Numbered from the stretch's first letter, positions 1 to 30,736 are shown. The stretch: 54,865 nt of DNA from Prochloron sp. SulCav_FS08_3_32_3330 (GCA_020721205.1 DYNF01000010.1:1-54865); one strand, 5' to 3'. A program made the numbers and translations. Notes: a model not told the origin generated them from the letters alone.

Positions 1-20
1 TAATTTTTTTCTAAAAATAC

Positions 21-283
21 CGATCGCTTTTTGGAGAATGAAAACGCCCTGCTTTATAAGCAGAGCGTTTTCATTCTCGGGAGGCAAGGGGTTTCAACCC
101 CTTGCTACATAAACAAAACCTGCCTACGCAGGTTGAATTTTTTAATATTAGTTAATATTTAATCTCGAAACCCGGGTCGCCCGTGGTTTTGTTTGGGTAG
201 CAACGGGTTTTAACCCGTTGAAAAAAAAGAATGAAAACACCCTGCTTTATAAGCAGGGCGTTTTCATTCTCCAAAAAGCGATC
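21..283. mobile_element. MITE-like element bounded by ~55-bp terminal inverted repeats, each itself a hairpin, with an AT-rich interior carrying terminator-type hairpin modules
   Basis: Left end 21-77 (cgatcgctttttggagaatgaaaacgccctgctttataagcag...) is the reverse complement of the right end 225-283 (...ctgctttataagcagggcgttttcattctccaaaaagcgatc). Internal modules recur at 6915-7470 and 30575-30736. The window starts at 1, so the left flank may be truncated. Confidence 0.45.
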
Positions 284-400
284 ATTATAACCTTTTTGTA
301 ATCAATTTTTTTAGCTTGTTTTTGATATTAATTAATCAAAAATCATTAAATCTTAAAAAGTTGCCCACCTTACTTGTAAAAATCAAAAGTCGGGGATTTA

Positions 401-1171
401 TTAAATAATTAATTGTAAATCTTCATTAAAAAATTTACGATAAACTCCCGTAGTAATTAAAGAAGTCATAATTAAATTTGTTACTACAATCATAAATAAT
501 ATTAAAATTTGATAAGAAGCGGCTTCTAAAGGTTTAATACCTGCTAAAATTTGTCCTGTAAAAATACCCGGAAGACTAACTAAACCCATAACCATCATAT
601 TATTTAAAGTGGGGATTAAACTAACTCTAATTGCCTGTTTTCGATAATTTTTAATTGCCTGTAAAGGAGTAGCTCCTAAACTTAAATATGTTTCAATTTC
701 TAAACGATTATTTTTAATATTACTAGCTAATCTTTCCCCTGCTAAAGAAGCACTATTCATCGTATTTCCTAACACTAATCCTGTTAAAGAAATTAAATAT
801 TGAGGCTCATACCAAGTTTTAGGTTGAATAATTAAAATTAAAGTATAACTTAAAGTGAATAAAATACTGACAAAAATTGAGCCAAAAATAATCGGAAATA
901 ATCCTTTAATTTCTTTACTAATATTATTTTTTATTACCTGAGTAGCGATAGTTAACATCATAATTAAAATGATAACTACGGGTAAAGGTTGATTTATTTC
1001 AAAAATAAACTCTAAAATATATCCTATCATTAATAATTGTAAAATAGCTCTACCACTAGCAATAATTAATTGACTTTCTAATTCTAATTTTTGCCAAAAA
1101 GATAGGGTAAGAGAAACTCCTAACATTCCTAATAATAAAACTAAATCAATAATATCTAATTTTTCAATCAT
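401..1171 (-). CDS. ABC-type permease of the UPF0014/FetB (YbbM) iron-export family; polytopic membrane protein
   Basis: 256 aa with about 7 hydrophobic helices. Length and topology fit the FetB-like permease family. No cognate ATPase gene is adjacent; the upstream side is occupied by the tnpB element. Confidence 0.5.
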   Translation of the reverse strand: MIEKLDIIDLVLLLGMLGVSLTLSFWQKLELESQLIIASGRAILQLLMIGYILEFIFEINQPLPVVIILIMMLTIATQVIKNNISKEIKGLFPIIFGSIFVSILFTLSYTLILIIQPKTWYEPQYLISLTGLVLGNTMNSASLAGERLASNIKNNRLEIETYLSLGATPLQAIKNYRKQAIRVSLIPTLNNMMVMGLVSLPGIFTGQILAGIKPLEAASYQILILFMIVVTNLIMTSLITTGVYRKFFNEDLQLII

Positions 1172-1260
1172 AAAAAAAATTTAAAATGCAAAGTTAATCT
1201 GATTTGACTTCCTCACCGCCCTCCGTTTCACTCGCATGGCGGTGATTCCTACTAAAATAG
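1172..1260 (-). ncRNA. Candidate TnpB guide RNA (omegaRNA/reRNA) scaffold at the 3' end of tnpB / right end of the IS
   Basis: Minus strand just downstream of the tnpB stop carries a stem-loop caccgccatgcgagtgaaacggagggcggtg (7-bp GC stem). In IS200/IS605 elements the omegaRNA spans the tnpB 3' end and right end. This is inference only. Confidence 0.25.
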
Positions 1261-2472
1261 TGTTAATTGCTCAAATCTATTTTCTCGGTGGGTTGACGCT
1301 TCACGGGATGTTGCTACTTTAGAAGTAGTCTTACACGCTCCTCCACGTCCGTTTAATGTCTCCGAATGCCCTCCGGCGACTAAAATATTCACACTGGCAT
1401 TAACATCTCTATCGTGATTTGTACCGCAATTTAAACAAGTCCACTCCCTAATATTCAACTCTTTTTTACCACCTTTAAAGCCACAAACAGAGCAAGTTTG
1501 AGATGTGGGTGTCCATCTATCAATTACTCGAAAATCCCTCCCGTACATTAAGGATTTAGCTTCTAACATAGTTCGAAAACTACGCCAACCTAAATCACTA
1601 ATCGCACGGGATAATTTTCGATTTTTCATCATTCCTGAAACATTCAAATCCTCTAAAACAATTACTTGATTTTCGTTAATTATTTTAGTTGACAATTTAT
1701 GTAAAAAATCGCTTCTAGTATCAGAAATCTTAGCGTGAAGTTTAGCTAATTTCTTTCTAGCTACTTCCCTTCTATTACTACCTTTTTCTTTTCTTGATAG
1801 ATTTCTTTGTAACTTTCTTAAACGCTTTAATTGACGTTTTAAAGGTTTAGGAGATTTAACTTTTTCCCCATTACTTAAAGTAGCAAAATCCGTTATTCCT
1901 AAATCAATACCTACTGAGTTATTATTCTCAGGTAATTGTTCAGGAGTAAACTCCACTACAAAGCTAACAAAGTATCTATCAGCAGAATCTTTAATGATAG
2001 TAACACTAGAAGGAATAGCGGGTAATTCTCGACTCCAGATTACTTTTATATCGCCTATTTTAGCTAAGTAAATGTAATCAGAATTAGGACATATTTTAAA
2101 GCCATTATCTGTAAATCTAGCTGATTGTTTTGACTTTCTTTTTTTAAATTTAGGTGGTTTAACTTTCTTTCCTTTTCTCTTACCTTTACAGGAGTTAAAA
2201 AAGTTAGAATAACCTTGTTCTAAATCTCTTAAACTTTGTTGTAAAGGAATAGCAGAAACTTCTGTTAACCAGATAGTTTCCTCCTCTTTCTTGAGTAAAG
2301 TTAATCTTTTAGAAAGTTCAGTATTTTTAGGCTTTTTCTTATTTTCTTCATACTCTTTTTTACAATGAGCTAAAGTATCGTTCCAAACAAACCTACAACA
2401 ACCAAACAATTGAGACAAATGTCTTTTTTGTTGGTTAGTTGGGTAAGCTCTGTAACGATAGCGTAGTTTCAT
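1252..2472 (-). CDS. tnpB: IS200/IS605-family OrfB transposase / RNA-guided endonuclease TnpB (IS1341-like, no TnpA present)
   Basis: 406 aa with N-terminal MKLRYRYRAYPT...HLSQLFGCCRFVWN typical of OrfB_IS605. RuvC-I is IDLGITDF, RuvC-II is VIVLEDLNV, zinc finger is CSVCG...CLNCG and RuvC-III is HDRDVNASVNI. All catalytic residues are present. Confidence 0.85.
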   Translation of the reverse strand: MKLRYRYRAYPTNQQKRHLSQLFGCCRFVWNDTLAHCKKEYEENKKKPKNTELSKRLTLLKKEEETIWLTEVSAIPLQQSLRDLEQGYSNFFNSCKGKRKGKKVKPPKFKKRKSKQSARFTDNGFKICPNSDYIYLAKIGDIKVIWSRELPAIPSSVTIIKDSADRYFVSFVVEFTPEQLPENNNSVGIDLGITDFATLSNGEKVKSPKPLKRQLKRLRKLQRNLSRKEKGSNRREVARKKLAKLHAKISDTRSDFLHKLSTKIINENQVIVLEDLNVSGMMKNRKLSRAISDLGWRSFRTMLEAKSLMYGRDFRVIDRWTPTSQTCSVCGFKGGKKELNIREWTCLNCGTNHDRDVNASVNILVAGGHSETLNGRGGACKTTSKVATSREASTHRENRFEQLTLF

Positions 2473-2523
2473 TTGATTTAATTTGATTTTAGTGTTATAT
2501 TCTAATTATAGACTTTTATTTAG

Positions 2524-2679
2524 ATTATATCAAGATCAAAAAAGATTCAATTTAATGTTAATGAACGGGAGTATCTTATACTCAAAAAATATGCTGAGTA
2601 TCTCAATATCTCAATGGCAGAAGTGTTAAGGGATTATATTAAGTCACTAGAAAGCCGTCCTAGAAGGACGGGGTTTTAA
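2524..2679 (+). pseudogene. Remnant of a ribbon-helix-helix (CopG/ParD-like) antitoxin-type gene lacking a start codon, probably truncated by the IS insertion
   Basis: Open frame ...NVNEREYLILKKYAEYLNISMAEVLRDYIKSLESRPRRTGF stop has an RHH-like pattern (beta-strand then helix). There is no ATG/GTG/TTG before the internal Met at 2614. It abuts the IS left end. Confidence 0.3.
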
Positions 2680-2780
2680 ACCCATTCTTTCTGATATAAT
2701 TATCTCATAGCATTAATAAAAAGACAAGATGAAATATAAGATAAAAAAGTGATAACGGATACATTAAATAATATTTTACT

Positions 2781-5537
2781 ATGAAAATCAAACCTAATTT
2801 ATTAAATTTTATTCCTAAACTTCCTTTAAGAATTGTTTTTACTGTTCCTTTTGTATTACAAATTATTGTAATAGTGGGTTTAGTAGGTTATTTTTCCTTT
2901 AAAAATGGACAAAAAGCTGTTAATAATTTAGCGAATCAATTAATATTACAAACAGCAAAATCAATTGAAAATGAAGTTACCTGTTTTCTACAAAAACCTC
3001 CCGAAATTACCCAAAATCATCAAAATTTAATTAATAACAATATTTTAAATCTTAATAATTTAGATCAATGGATATTTTATTTAGTTGATGAGGCTAAACT
3101 TTATCAATCTAGTTATATTAATTCTATTAAAATTGCTAATAATCAAGATGAATTTCTTGGGGCAGGTTTTACTTATATTAATAACGAAAAAAGATCAGGA
3201 ATCTCTATTTCCGGGGCAAAAACTAATTATCAATGGCAAGGTTATGAGAATATTAAAAGAGGACAACCTTTACAAAAACCTAGTATAATTAACCCTAATT
3301 TTTATGCGACTAAACGCCTTTGGTATCAAGAGGCTATTCAGCAAAAAAAAGCCAGATGGATTGATATTTCCACCGCCAAAAGTGATAAAACTCAGTTAAC
3401 TTTAAATTTTAGTCAACCTCTTTATAATCAAAATCGAAGTCAAATTTTAGGAGTTTCATCTGTGCAAATTAATTTAGTTAATCTTAATTATTTATTAGCT
3501 AGATTAAATATTCACAAAAAATTAGGACAAATTTTGATTATTGAAAAAGATAGTAATTTAGTCGCAACTTCTACTTTAGAAAACCCTTTTAATCCTCTGG
3601 ATCAAAAAAATCCTAGATTATCAGCTTTAAATAGTAATAATTCCTTAAGTAGGGATATTGCTAATTATTTAAAATCCTATAATCAAGATTTTTCTTCTTT
3701 TAATAATAAACCGACTATTAAGTTAAAATTTAATCAAGAAAACTATTTTTTAACTATATTTAAAGTAGAAGATCCTTATGGTTTAGAATGGTATATTGTA
3801 ATTACTGTGCCTGAATCCCATTTTATGGAGGAAATTAATGATAATACTCAAAAAACTGTTCTCTTTTCAATTTTAGCTTTAATTATTGCGATTATTCTTG
3901 GCATTTTTACCAGTAATTGGATCACAAAACCTATTTTAATACTTACTCAATCTGCTCAATTTTTTGCTCAAGGAAAATGGCAAGAAAGAGTTAATTTAAA
4001 AAGAAAAGATGAACTAGGTCAACTCGCAAATTCTTTTAATTTTATGGCTCAAGAATTACAAGGTTATGTGGAAAATTTGGAACATAAAGTACAAGAAAGA
4101 ACCGCAGAATTGGCGATCGCAAAGGAAAAAGCAGAAGTAGCAAATCAAGCAAAAAGTTTTTTTATTGCGAATATGAGTCATGAGTTAAGAACTCCTTTAA
4201 ATGCGATTTTAGGATTTTCTCAAATTATGATCAAATCAAAATTATTATCTCAAGAATATCAAGAAAATCTAAATATTATTTATCAAAGTGGAGATTATTT
4301 ATTAACTTTAATTAATAATATTTTAGACTTTTCTAAAATTGAAGCTGAAAAAATGGTTTTAAATTGCCAAGATTTTGATCTTTATTGTTTATTAAATGAA
4401 GTGAAAAATTTATTAAGTTTAAAAGCAGAAACTAAGGGTTTAAATTTAATTTTTGATATAGATCAGAATGTGCCTCAATATATTTCTACTGATCAAACAA
4501 AATTGCGTCAAGTGTTAATTAATTTAATTAATAATGGGATTAAATTTACCGAAAATGGCAGTATTTCTGTCACCGTTAATCGTCAATTAAATGATAAATT
4601 AAATGGAGATAATTTAGCTCTCAAAATAACAGTAGAAGATACGGGAGCGGGTATTTCTAAGGAAGAATTAAAGCAATTATTTCAAGCATTTAGTCAAACT
4701 GAAACAGGAAAAAATAGTAATGAAGGAACAGGTTTAGGATTGGCGATTAGTCAAAAATTTATTAATTTAATGGGGGGCAATATTGAGGTTAAAAGTAAAG
4801 TAGGAAAAGGCTCTATTTTTAGTTTTCAAATTAAAGTTAGAAAAGCTAATCAACCTAATATAAATAATCAAAAAATAAAACTTAATGTTATTGCGTTAAA
4901 ACCCCATCAACCTGAATATAAAATATTAATTGCTGATGATCAAGAAATTAATCGGTTATTATTAATTAAATTATTACAACCTTTAGGATTTAAACTAAAA
5001 GAAGCGAAAAATGGTAAAGAAGTTATCAAAATCTGGGATGAATGGCAACCTCATTTAATCTGGTTAGATCTGCGAATGCCGATCATGAATGGTTATGAAG
5101 CTACTCAATATATTAAGGGTACAATGAAAGGTAATGCTACGGCAATTATTGCTTTAACTGCTAGTGTTTTAGAGGAAGAAAAACAGATCATTTTATCCGC
5201 AGGATGTGATGATTTTATCAGAAAACCTTTTCAAGAATCGGTAATTTTTGAAACTATGGCGAAACATTTAGGAGTAGAATATATTTATGAAGAAAATGCA
5301 CCCGATCAAGATATAATAAAATCAGAATATAAGCTTAATTGTGAAAGTTTAAAAGTTATGTCTCAAGACTGGATCTCAAAATTAAATCAAGCATCCATGA
5401 GTTTAGATGATGAAATAATTTTAAATTTAATTCAAGAAATTCCTCCCGAATATCATTTATTAGGGGAAGCTTTAACGGATTTAGTTAATGATTTTCGTTT
5501 TGATAAAATTAGAATTTTAACGGAGAATATAGAATAA
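2781..5537 (+). CDS. Hybrid sensor histidine kinase: N-terminal TM + dCache-like periplasmic sensor, second TM, HAMP, HisKA (H-box SHELRTPLN), HATPase_c, C-terminal receiver domain
   Basis: 918 aa. H-box [17 protein letters not shown] and N/G1/G2 boxes ([25 protein letters not shown]). C-terminal REC carries ILIADDQ...D and the conserved K. Confidence 0.85.
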
Positions 5538-5539
5538 TT

Positions 5540-6910
5540 ATGAATAAACAAGATCAAGAAATCAAATCGGCAAATATTTTAATTGTAGATGATCAAATTG
5601 CTAACTTAAAAGTGCTTAATCAAATGTTACAAAATAAAGGTTATAAAGTGAGAAAAGCGATTAATGGAGAAATTGCTTTAATTGCGATCAAACAAGAATT
5701 TCCTGATTTAATTTTATTGGATATTATGATGCCAGAAATGGATGGTTATGAATTATGTAGAAGGTTAAAAAATAGTCCAAAAACTCAGGAGATTCCTGTT
5801 ATTTTTATTAGTGCTTTAAATGAAGTTTTTGATAAAATTAAAGCTTTTGAAATCGGAGGAATTGACTATATAACTAAACCTTTTCAAGAAGGGGAAGTTT
5901 TAGCAAGAATTAATCATCAATTAATCATTAAACAGCAAAAAGAATTATTAGAAAAAAAACAGCAAAAATTACTATTAGAAATTAAACATAGAACAGAAAC
6001 TGAAGCTATATTATATCAGTCAAGGGCAATTATTTCTGGTATTTTAAATAGTTCTCTTGATGGGATTGCGGCTTTAGAGGCTGTAAGAGAGGCAAAAACA
6101 GGACTTATTCAAGATTTTCGTTGTTTAGTTGTTAATCCAATTTTAGCACAATTTTTTAATTTAGATGCTGATGATCTTAGTGGTAAAATAATTTTTAGAC
6201 GCTTTATCAACAAAATAAATCATGATTTATTTTCTTTATTTATTAATGTTATTGAAACAGGGGAAGCATTAAAACAAGAATTTAATTATTTTCAGGGGGA
6301 AAAATCCTTATGGTATGAGGTTTTTGCTGTTAAATTAGGTGATGGTTTTGCGATAACAGTTAGAGATATTACAAAACGGAAAAATTTGGAGTTAAAATTA
6401 GATATTCTTGCTAGTACAGACAGCTTAACAGGAGTCGCAAATCGTCGCACATTTGATCATATTTTAGATCAAGAATGGAAACGTAGTTATCGAGAAAAAT
6501 ATCCTTTATCTTTAATATTAGCTGATATTGATTATTTTAAATTATATAATGATTATTATGGACATCAAAAAGGAGATGATTGTTTAATAAAAGTTGCCCA
6601 AACTATTAGGAATAGTTTACAACGTCCTGCGGATTTAGTTGCCCGTTATGGGGGAGAAGAATTTGTAATTATTTTACCGAATACTGATTTAGAAGGAGGG
6701 TTAAATGTGGCTGAAAATATTAGAAATAATCTGGAACAAATGAAGTTAGATCATGTTAAATCAAAAGTGCATAATTATGTTACTTTAAGTTTAGGTATTG
6801 CTAGTATAATTCCCACTCAAGAATTATCAATTTATCATTTAATTAAAATAGTAGATCAAGCTTTATATAAAGCTAAACAAAATGGCAGAAATCAAGTTAG
6901 TTTTAATTAA
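5540..6910 (+). CDS. Response regulator with REC-PAS-GGDEF architecture (diguanylate cyclase)
   Basis: 456 aa with ILIVDDQ...LLDIMMPEMDG (receiver). GGDEF core is RYGGEEF and the I-site-like motif is RxxD. Its start lies 3 bp after the kinase stop, so it forms an operon with 2781-5537. Confidence 0.85.
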   Translation: MNKQDQEIKSANILIVDDQIANLKVLNQMLQNKGYKVRKAINGEIALIAIKQEFPDLILLDIMMPEMDGYELCRRLKNSPKTQEIPVIFISALNEVFDKIKAFEIGGIDYITKPFQEGEVLARINHQLIIKQQKELLEKKQQKLLLEIKHRTETEAILYQSRAIISGILNSSLDGIAALEAVREAKTGLIQDFRCLVVNPILAQFFNLDADDLSGKIIFRRFINKINHDLFSLFINVIETGEALKQEFNYFQGEKSLWYEVFAVKLGDGFAITVRDITKRKNLELKLDILASTDSLTGVANRRTFDHILDQEWKRSYREKYPLSLILADIDYFKLYNDYYGHQKGDDCLIKVAQTIRNSLQRPADLVARYGGEEFVIILPNTDLEGGLNVAENIRNNLEQMKLDHVKSKVHNYVTLSLGIASIIPTQELSIYHLIKIVDQALYKAKQNGRNQVSFN

Positions 6911-6914
6911 GAAA

Positions 6915-7470
6915 AAGCAACAGCAACAGGTTGAAACCTGTTGGGGAAAAAAGGAGGGCGTTTTCATTTTCCTGAATGCAACGGGTTGAAACCCGTTGCT
7001 ACATAAGCAAAACCTGCTTACGCAGGTTGAATTTTTTTAATATTAGTTAATATTTAATCTTAAAACTCGTAAAGACGGGTTTTGTTTGGGTAGCAACAGG
7101 TTTTAACCTGTTGAAAAAAAAGAATGAAAACGCCCTGACTTTAATCTTAAAACCCGTAAAGACGGGTTTTGTTTGGGTAGCAACGGGTTTTAACCCGTTG
7201 AAAAAAAAAGAATGAAAACGCCCTGACTTTAATCTTAAAACCCGTAAAGACGGGTTTTGTTTGGGTAGCAACAGGTTTTAACCCGTTGAAAAAAAAGAAT
7301 GAAAACGCCCTGACAGGTAAGATGCCTGTTTCACGGTTGAATTTTTTTAATATTAGTTAATATTTAATCTTAAAACCCGTAAAGACGGGTTTTGTTTGGG
7401 TAGCAACGGGTTTTAACCCGTTGAAAAAAAAGAATGAAAACGCCCCGGGAAAAAAAGGAGGCTTTTTTAT
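6915..7470. repeat. Tandem/shuffled array of hairpin repeat modules from the same family as the MITE at 21-283 and the element at 30575-30736
   Basis: Repeated units of about 88 bp: cttaaaacccgtaaagacgggttttgtttgggtagcaacgggttttaacccgttgaaaaaaaagaatgaaaacgccctgactttaat occurs 4 times. Two copies of the dual-hairpin + T-tract module ...tacataagcaaaacctgcttacgcaggttgaatttttttaatattagttaatatttaatc are also present. It lies between the convergent GGDEF and map genes. Confidence 0.8.
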
Positions 7471-30574: not shown

Positions 30575-30736
30575 GAAGGCAACAGGTTTTAATCTGCAAC
30601 AGGTTGAAACCTGTTGCTACATAAACAAAATCTGCATACGCAGATTAAATTTTTTGAATATTCGTTAATTTTTAATCATAAAACCCTCGCAGGAGGGTTT
30701 TGTTTGGGTAGCATCGGGTTTTCAACCCGATGGAAA
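30575..30736. repeat. Hairpin repeat element (same family as 21-283 and 6915-7470) immediately downstream of hisB
   Basis: ggcaacaggttttaatctgcaacaggttgaaacctgttgctacataaacaaaatctgcatacgcagattaaattttttgaatattcgttaatttttaatcataaaaccctcgcaggagggttttgtttgggtagcatcgggttttcaacccgatgg. Stems differ from the other copies by compensatory changes (cctgc/gcagg to tctgc/gcaga; caacggg/cccgttg to catcggg/cccgatg). Confidence 0.7.

Follow-up and report, generated by a model that had tools for sequence, protein, structure and literature searches.

The stretch of DNA analyzed here, 54,865 nt from Prochloron sp. SulCav_FS08_3_32_3330 (GCA_020721205.1 DYNF01000010.1:1-54865, hereinafter the window), carries between a permease gene and a sensor kinase gene a complete tnpB gene on the minus strand and a small gene of a predicted ribbon-helix-helix (RHH) protein on the plus strand, both enclosed within the conserved ends of a mobile element. 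In all probability, this is one copy of a cyanobacterial IS200/IS605-family element located at positions 1204 to approximately 2693 (minus strand), devoid of the transposase gene tnpA and equipped with TnpB, a scaffold of its guide RNA (omegaRNA) and an RHH gene of its own of the Arc type, referred to below as arc. The whole element comprises about 1490 bp; its right end (RE) was fixed by comparison with 60 unique relatives, and its left end (LE), uncertain by ca. 3 nt (2693-2696), by comparison with relatives and with two differently flanked copies. Read along the tnpB strand, it consists of a motif in the flank resembling a target site or transposon-associated motif (TAM), the LE with two hairpins, arc on the opposite strand, back-to-back promoters, tnpB, an RNA scaffold overlapping the end of tnpB, a further hairpin and the terminal GTCAA. 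The element is an ordinary, non-autonomous, IS1341-like one, of a kind already known, of which it is a new, cyanobacterial member; TnpB insertion sequences (IS) are among the commonest gene types in prokaryotes, to which the element of the window adds one more.

The tnpB gene (1252..2472, minus strand) encodes a protein of 406 aa without interruptions, which matches the Pfam families OrfB_IS605 (1.7e-35), Cas12f1-like_TNB (3.7e-23) and HTH_OrfB_IS605 (4e-20) and scores 378.9 bits with the NCBIfam model guided_TnpB against the cut-off of 100. The structures of ISDra2 TnpB (PDB 8BF8/8EXA/8H1J) align to its residues 7-384 with E 1e-78, and in this alignment D190 (in IDLGI, starting at residue 189), E274 (VLEDLN, 272) and D356 (HDRDVNASVNI, 353) correspond to D191, E278 and D361 of ISDra2, respectively. 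The zinc finger is represented by the CxxC pairs at residues 327 and 346 (C327/C330/C346/C349). The intactness of the RuvC triad and of the zinc finger, noted in an earlier reading made from the DNA alone (hereinafter the sequence-only reading), was thus confirmed, and tnpB homologues do not carry substitutions at these positions throughout, as the triad and the four cysteines are conserved in 62-63 of 63 intact relatives. A look-up of the exact protein returned no record. The candidate role of an exapted nuclease-dead regulator of the TldR type was ruled out, since the catalytic triad and both transposon ends are intact.

The relatives were collected by a scan of one genome per species, which yielded 80 loci (all except two carry cyanobacterial names) with TnpB proteins 50-83% identical to that of the window (loci and contigs are designated below by L numbers). 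The RE lies at position 1204, where the element ends in ...GGAAGTCAA and the window reads ...GAGGAAGTCAA. All 60 unique relatives possess GGAATC, a hairpin and GGAGGATGTCAA, ending with GTCAA, beyond which their sequences are unrelated. The terminal GTCAA (1204..1208, minus strand) is invariant in an alignment of 27 sequences, contains TCAA, the right cleavage site of IS608, and terminates 10 nt 3' of the foot of the hairpin. The hairpin itself, UCACCGCC...GGCGGUGA (1213..1245, minus strand), is situated 7 to 39 nt past the tnpB stop codon and folds as RNA with -17.8 kcal/mol (z = -3.1 versus shuffled sequences); 59 relatives contain 49 distinct sequences of this hairpin, all of which fold, with a median of 10 bp. 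It is likely the hairpin recognized by TnpA and, at the same time, the predicted terminal stem-loop of the omegaRNA scaffold.

The conserved region proposed as this scaffold extends from 1204 to about 1376 on the minus strand and overlaps the last ~125 nt of tnpB. RNAalifold analysis and counting of pairs, both performed on the last 200 nt of the 27-sequence alignment, revealed four helices, in window coordinates 1376-1372/1366-1362, 1349-1347/1208-1206, 1328-1324/1318-1314 and 1244-1240/1218-1214 (minus strand), in which 95.6% of the alignment cells are paired and 10 pairs are changed on both sides; none of 500 column shuffles was as good, and upon moving the partners by 1-3 columns as a control only 31-50% remained paired. 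A covariance model built from 24 relatives, with the window sequence left out, found a single match in 54,865 nt, namely 1204-1342 on the minus strand (94.3 bits, E 3e-24), which covers the full model length and ends exactly at the RE. The GC-rich stem-loop caccgcc...ggcggtg that the sequence-only reading had pointed out directly after the tnpB stop is therefore present and covaries in relatives, and it stands where the 3' scaffold of omegaRNA is expected; the covariance search and the position of the RE beyond the hairpin both agree with that proposal, since with the RE fixed at 1204 by the relatives the hairpin belongs to the element.

The guide of the omegaRNA would be copied from the DNA straight after GTCAA, which differs in all 60 relatives. 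In the window the predicted guide is ATCAGATTAACTTTGCATTT (1203 down to 1184, minus strand); this flank DNA just 3' of the RE belongs at the same time to the 32-nt leader preceding the fetB-like permease gene. The guide length of 16-20 nt was assumed on the basis of ISDra2.

The LE is marked by a ~45-nt block conserved in more than 20 relatives, with the sequence TATCAGAAAGAATGGGTTTAAAACCCCGTCCTTCTAGGACGGCTTT on the tnpB strand, which gives one nhmmer match in the window (2650-2693, E 5e-16). It includes two subterminal hairpins within 2655..2683 (minus strand), CCGTCCT-TCT-AGGACGG (2671-2655) and GGGTTTAAAACCC (2683-2671), kept in the same relatives. Both ends of the element are thus built of subterminal hairpins preserved among the relatives (LE 2655-2683, RE 1213-1245) and not of terminal inverted repeats, and the two ends share no long inverted repeat. 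The outer limit of the LE was refined with metagenome contigs, found through a search with the RHH protein, that represent two differently flanked copies: L084, L085 and L086 share one flank, L087 and L088 another, and these copies are common up to TATCAG and wholly different beyond it, which places the LE at 2693-2696 and sets the length of the element at ~1490 bp. Elsewhere in the 54,865-nt window neither a second copy of the element nor orphan ends were detected. The location of the element given by the sequence-only reading (1172-2680) was thus correct in general, and its limits have to be corrected: it included 32 nt of flank and guide and omitted the last 13-16 nt of the LE, the true range being 1204 to ~2693-2696.

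At the LE flank the relatives possess TTTAT, GTTAT, ATTAT, TTGAC, TTCAC, TTTAC or GTTAC, that is, apparently, a TTNAY-like motif at the place of the IS200/IS605 target site and of the TnpB TAM. The corresponding position of the window is 2694..2698 (minus strand), where TATAT is found. The distance between the target motif and the left hairpin is ~21 nt, and on the opposite side TCAA ends 10 nt from the foot of the right hairpin. Comparison with other copies, which the sequence-only reading had recommended, has accordingly defined both ends (RE 1204, LE ~2693-2696), and as for the TAM, it is conservation among relatives that points to the motif, of which the window presents an atypical variant. 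As a separate observation, the hexamer ATCAGA occurs on the minus strand both at 2690-2695, as the first bases of the LE, and at 1198-1203, as the first bases past the RE, i.e., at the start of the guide; this repeat was not seen in the right flanks of relatives and may be either a coincidence or a footprint of insertion or homing.

The second gene of the element, arc (2527..2679, plus strand; open frame 2524-2679), consists of 50 codons and is enclosed by the element boundaries, with the LE hairpin on one side and tnpB, from which it diverges, on the other; its last 8 codons run through the LE hairpin. The frame translates as IISRSKKIQFNVNEREYLILKKYAEYLNISMAEVLRDYIKSLESRPRRTGF*. A tblastn search of the related loci revealed the same protein, starting with MSR, in the same place and orientation in L001 (84% identical), L059 and L063; altogether, window-type arc genes occupy this position in L001, L059, L063 and L084-L088, including a copy with a different flank (L084/L086) in which the gene also has ATG, and more distant RHH-like open reading frames (ORFs) are found there in L018 and L080. 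In pairwise comparisons of the window, L001 and L063, the proportion of nonsynonymous differences is low (pN 0.08-0.15) in comparison with that of synonymous ones (pS 0.65-0.95), 16-25 of 24-38 differences fall on third codon positions, and dN/dS, where computable, is ~0.06; the gene is under purifying selection. In a large protein collection 41 clusters of arc homologues were detected, mostly unannotated, the named ones being cyanobacterial (Crocosphaera, Planktothrix, Microcoleaceae). All 32 aligned homologues begin with Met; their residues 1-41 are strongly conserved, with K6, Q8, N10 and N12 invariant or nearly so, and the tail is variable. The ORF of the window is of full length (50 aa), as in most homologue clusters, and only its start codon differs. 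The AlphaFold2 model of Arc (predicted local distance difference test score, pLDDT, 76.5) comprises an extended N-terminus and helices 13-26 and 30-42, and most of the top Foldseek matches of this model are RHH proteins (MazE-mt1, VapB, ORF56, CopG, Rv0298, CdbA, NikA, Arc; template modeling (TM) scores 0.53-0.67). Among the four other RHH-like types present in relatives (see below), only the L018 variant reaches a Pfam cut-off (DUF6290, 29.3 bits versus 27). Additionally, in L084 (1-330; JGI 3300000236) and L085 (GCA_973786425.1) a 25-nt insertion in the LE hairpin alters the tail of Arc (61 aa, ...RRRCTEAPRSDGVLNP), and this copy adjoins a HicA-toxin gene and a small DUF7387 gene (weak match).

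In the window the first codon of arc is ATA (2527-2529), in place of ATG of the relatives. The same ATA is present in the independent metagenome contig L116, which has the same insertion and is 97.4% identical, and for this reason the change is regarded as fixed in the lineage of the window insertion; ATG is retained by a different copy, located on a contig of the metagenome sample that also yielded L081, the latter being a 98.3% match to the window locus. Translation initiates at AUA and AUU far less efficiently than at AUG, and with such a start codon Arc is probably made poorly or not at all from the copy in the window.

The start codon of arc also takes part in the predicted tnpB promoter, TTGATA-17-TATAAT (2505..2533, minus strand, -35 box at 2533-2528), which is the best sigma-70 match within 1100-2900 (11/12); at the same place L001 and L063 possess the perfect consensus TTGACA-17-TATAAT. 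Read on the opposite strand, the -35 hexamer corresponds to the first arc codons (ATG TCA A), and owing to this overlap the G>A change at 2529 converts ATG to ATA and TTGACA to TTGATA simultaneously, so that a single transition would both remove the repressor and weaken the tnpB promoter. Back to back with the tnpB promoter, a candidate arc promoter, TTGATT-17-TATATT (2473..2501, plus strand; 9/12, with TG before the -10 box), was predicted. The inverted repeat AGTCTA-TAAT-TAGAAT (2499..2514), recognized by reading the sequences, covers the -10 box of tnpB and could serve as the Arc operator; in L001, L063, L087 and L088 its counterpart is ACTCTA-TAAT-TAGAGT.

Such an arrangement finds a direct parallel. 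RHH "Arc-like" ORFs in TnpB elements were first noted in 2023 (Zedaveinyte et al., 10.1101/2023.11.20.567912). Later it was reported that Arc proteins of the IS605 family, including those from elements that consist of arc and tnpB only, bind the intergenic bidirectional promoter, and that reporter assays showed repression of the tnpB promoter by Arc via polar residues of its N-terminal strand, N5, N7 and T9 being the DNA-contact residues (Moon, Zedaveinyte, Wiegand & Sternberg, bioRxiv 28 September 2026, 10.64898/2026.09.24.754181). The element of the window resembles these in having an RHH gene of no more than 50 aa inside the element, divergent from tnpB, with back-to-back promoters and the architecture of arc plus tnpB only; the alternating polar residues K6, Q8, N10 and N12 of its N-terminal strand are likewise similar to those of the published Arc, the comparison with the published clade (seeds WP_003367503.1 and WP_094548610.1) being one of architecture. 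It differs in that the published examples are from Clostridia-type hosts, the paper making no mention of cyanobacteria, in that arc adjoins and overlaps tnpA there, whereas here arc and tnpA are alternatives in one position, and in that the copy of the window is a natural start-codon mutant. The Arc-regulated IS605 architecture would thereby be extended to cyanobacteria.

When sorted by the distance between the LE and tnpB, the relatives fall into three classes. At 25-110 nt there is no gene in between. At ~160-210 nt a 46-55-aa RHH-like ORF lies on the opposite strand, represented by five types (the window, L018, L014/L030, L027 and L031). At 415-455 nt the opposite strand encodes a Y1 transposase of 126-139 aa (Y1_Tnp 1.2e-37; transpos_IS200 132.6 bits versus the cut-off of 55), found between the same LE and tnpB in L007, L009, L011, L015, L016, L062 and L067-L069. 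Judging by these gene contents, sibling elements with the same ends are apparently autonomous, and the copy of the window possesses an RHH gene in the place of tnpA. Together with the start-codon mutant of arc, this natural series with tnpA, arc or nothing in one slot provides material for testing Arc repression in native hosts.

The two alternative genes have common features at their 3' ends. Most tnpA and RHH ORFs terminate in the same codons encoded by the LE (...KPS, the stop codon lying within the hairpin loop); owing to a frame shift, the window and L001 have the tail ...SRPRRTGF in place of ...KPS. At the DNA level the arc-type and tnpA-type elements are homologous over the LE-proximal 75-90 nt only, a stretch that corresponds to the last ~11-19 codons of arc (AEVLRDYIKSL..., the second half of helix B) and to the 3' end of tnpA (LEVLKSYIKNQEKPS; EVLKSYIKNQ). 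Profile-profile comparison (hhalign) aligned Arc 23-45 with TnpA 110-132 (P 0.0017). Elements with neither gene keep the end codons of tnpA, such as VLKSYIQNPEN in L005 and L008 (about 2890-2930; the last ~11 codons only). Considering these facts, it is conceivable, and we propose it tentatively, that the repressor gene of this cyanobacterial IS clade was built on the retained 3' stump of tnpA, which would have supplied the second helix of Arc. If so, an element devoid of tnpA has gained a repressor by reusing the sequence that its LE must keep anyway, and the occurrence of at least five RHH-like types in the slot suggests that chimeric regulators have repeatedly taken the place of the transposase. 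Derivation of arc from tnpA over its whole length by deletion was rejected, as the DNA homology is confined to the LE-proximal ~75-90 nt, and so was a similarity of the N-terminal part of Arc to the HUH region of TnpA, which in blastp is at chance level (E 0.05-0.7 in a tiny database) and topologically inconsistent. L017, assigned to the arc type by the gap length, was likewise rejected, having no RHH ORF and an internal deletion of tnpA. Besides this deletion, a frameshifted tnpA was observed in L023, and the decayed forms of tnpA (the remnants in L005/L008 included), together with the five RHH-like types, point to rapid turnover of the region between the LE and tnpB.

Proceeding from the known behavior of such elements, the following scheme may be proposed. 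A Y1 TnpA supplied by a sibling element would recognize both subterminal hairpins and cut after the target motif and after TCAA, and the top strand would move as single-stranded DNA. The tnpB transcript would be processed to omegaRNA, its last 16-20 nt being copied from the RE flank (here ATCAGATTAACTTTGCATTT), and TnpB with this omegaRNA would cut the empty site left by excision, recognized by the TAM and the guide match, after which recombination would restore the element. Dimers of Arc would presumably occupy the inverted repeat that spans the -10 box of tnpB, thereby keeping the expression of tnpB, and probably of arc itself, at a low level.

Most parts of the scheme have counterparts in elements studied earlier. 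In ISDra2 of Deinococcus radiodurans, whose TnpB is homologous over residues 7-384 and shares the D/E/D triad and the zinc finger, the scaffold shares sequence with both the 3' end of tnpB and the RE and is followed by a guide derived from the flank, and we infer a similar omegaRNA here from conservation, covariation and this analogy. The TAM of ISDra2 is TTGAT, which the TTNAY-like motif proposed here (e.g., TTGAC, TTTAT) resembles. Unlike the copy in the window, which lacks tnpA and has arc, ISDra2 carries its own tnpA and no RHH gene. With the ends and the guide position defined and a TAM probable, the nuclease of the window can be tested as an ISDra2-like editing enzyme. IS608 of Helicobacter pylori is similar in having subterminal hairpins at both ends in the absence of inverted terminal repeats, an RE ending in TCAA 10 nt 3' of the hairpin foot, and a target tetranucleotide situated outside the element ~20 nt 5' of the left hairpin (PMC3201880); it is dissimilar in its target, TTAC as against the TTAT/TGAC-like motifs here, in the lack of tnpA in the window copy and in the divergent position of tnpA or arc relative to tnpB in the present family. 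With solo tnpB elements of the IS1341 type the element shares tnpB without tnpA and ends of the IS200/IS605 type, presumably being mobilized in trans; it is distinguished from them by the second gene, arc, and by close relatives that possess tnpA, arc or neither.

Several observations weigh against the identification of the element and of its parts. No tnpA is present in the window, as the sequence-only reading had correctly stated in describing a solo TnpB arrangement. The RE hairpin loop of the window is ~13 nt longer than in most relatives, and a scan against Rfam (window 1-4000, E<=1) detected neither omegaRNA nor any other family at the 3' end of tnpB. At the LE junction (2693-2700) the window reads TTATATCAG in comparison with TTATCAG in most relatives, which reflects either an AT slip (two bases) or a mutated target/TAM motif (ATAT for TTAT). 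A search of the metagenome collection with the junction pattern revealed no empty site, the TAM and the exact LE junction being read from conservation. The number of promoter-like sites in the region does not exceed that expected from shuffled sequences, and for this reason the arc promoter is a weak call. As for Arc itself, its Pfam RHH-type matches are below cut-off, a profile search against PDB sequences returned nothing meaningful, and the Foldseek E values of ~1 are individually not significant; E values near 1 are to be expected for a protein of 50 residues.

Some of these peculiarities would be explained if the identification were right and the copy in the window were a fixed, immobile relic, with its tnpB intact owing to recent insertion or to use by the host, e.g., for driving the permease gene. 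Three further assemblies share this insertion at 97-100% identity (L081, L082/L083 and L116), and the searches did not disclose the empty site: of the 26 loci with the 18-mer of the LE flank, L116 alone was related, and the insertion is present there as well, and in species with a 90%-identical permease the region upstream of that gene is not syntenic. The flank motif ATAT/TATAT departs from TTAT/TTTAT of relatives, and the altered junction could make excision and homing less efficient for the copy in the window; neither of the two strains in which the start of arc is covered retains its start codon; the enlarged RE loop and the lack of tnpA in the window are consistent with immobility as well. 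Moreover, the promoter scan found no promoter-like site between the RE and the start of the permease gene, so that this gene may have come to rely on read-through transcription from the element. Against immobility, the 406 codons of tnpB contain neither a stop nor a frameshift and preserve all catalytic and zinc-binding residues, every position invariant in the family is kept at both ends, and the covariance model fits over its full length with 94 bits. A second, differently flanked copy is present in the same metagenome sample as L081, and the short-read contigs L082 and L083, with an identical permease gene, break at window position 1272-1273, ~70 nt inside the RE; breaks of this sort inside an element are the usual sign of a repeat in those genomes, and together with the second copy they suggest that the family was recently active in this lineage. 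We consider a relic unlikely on the whole, while allowing it an appreciable chance.

Quite improbable, in our opinion, is that the RHH protein acts as a partner of TnpB at the protein level, like an antitoxin-type inhibitor, or upon the transposon ends, instead of repressing the promoter. RHH antitoxins are common, and archaeal pairs of RHH/MazE and TnpB (RIIIr-4), in which the RHH gene is upstream of tnpB, RuvC-III has D>H and the loci are non-mobile, were proposed to be toxin-antitoxin systems (PMC10691335); the Arc preprint (10.64898/2026.09.24.754181) keeps an interaction with TnpB-omegaRNA among its open models, and the arc ORF does overlap the LE hairpin. The likeness to the archaeal pairs consists in a small RHH gene adjoining tnpB, whereas in the window the two genes diverge, D356 is retained and mobile-element ends enclose the pair. 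What overlaps the LE hairpin is the variable tail of arc, whose frame changes from one homologue to another. In the 54-nt intergenic region there are consensus divergent promoters and an inverted repeat over the -10 box, and the IS605 Arc proteins tested so far bind and repress such promoters.

The element is flanked by the gene of a UPF0014 permease (401..1171, minus strand; 256 aa, 3.5e-86, ATG at 1171) and by that of a sensor kinase (2781..5537, plus strand; 918 aa). The RE is 32 nt upstream of the permease ATG, in the same orientation, and ~84-87 nt separate the LE from the kinase start; the site before insertion was a divergent intergenic region of ~119 nt, from which nothing was deleted, and the element now separates the permease gene from its former upstream region. 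The permease had been regarded as a FetB-type one without a cognate ATPase. A UPF0014 permease with no adjacent ATPase gene it is indeed, while the assignment to FetB was not upheld, as the score with the NCBIfam equivalog model TIGR00245 was 149.5 bits versus the cut-off of 410, even though its homologues are named FetB in public annotation. An ABC ATPase gene is found beside the permease neither in the window nor beside the homologue of Stanieria cyanosphaera PCC 7437, and no ABC-ATPase family was recognized in the partial upstream neighbors of two closer relatives (an aldehyde dehydrogenase in L091 and a weak match to a membrane domain in L089), so the uninterrupted fetA-fetB pair which the sequence-only reading suggested looking for in relatives was not encountered there. 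Flanking DNA is neither gained nor lost when IS200/IS605 elements transpose (PMC3201880). Given the Stanieria homologue, the failed FetB cut-off and this mode of transposition, displacement of fetA is unsupported.

It is extremely improbable that the RHH frame is a remnant of a host antitoxin gene whose 5' end was displaced or deleted by the IS along with fetA, as the sequence-only reading had it: the absence of an ATG, GTG or TTG start, which that reading observed correctly, the weak matches of the frame to antitoxin-type families (DUF6290, NikA-like, RelB_antitoxin) and the lack of an ATPase gene beside the permease speak for such an origin, and opposed to it are the position of the frame within the element, flanked by the conserved LE hairpin and by tnpB, the recurrence of the same gene with ATG in the same place in other genomes and in a differently flanked copy, the selection acting on it, its full length of 50 aa with a changed start codon (ATG>ATA) alone, and the evidence from permease neighbors and from the mode of transposition given above. 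The small RHH frame beside tnpB is a gene of the element and neither a broken host antitoxin nor a sign of deletion.

Outside the element, a 272-nt palindromic repeat resembling a miniature inverted-repeat transposable element (MITE) is located at 17-288 and consists of two 44-nt hairpins (35-78 and 228-271) around a 36-nt inverted pair; weak chance matches to Rfam in the palindromic repeat (17-346) are explained by it. Related copies of this repeat are arranged in tandem at 6950-7445, after a GGDEF gene ending at 6910, and another one is situated at 30596-30736.

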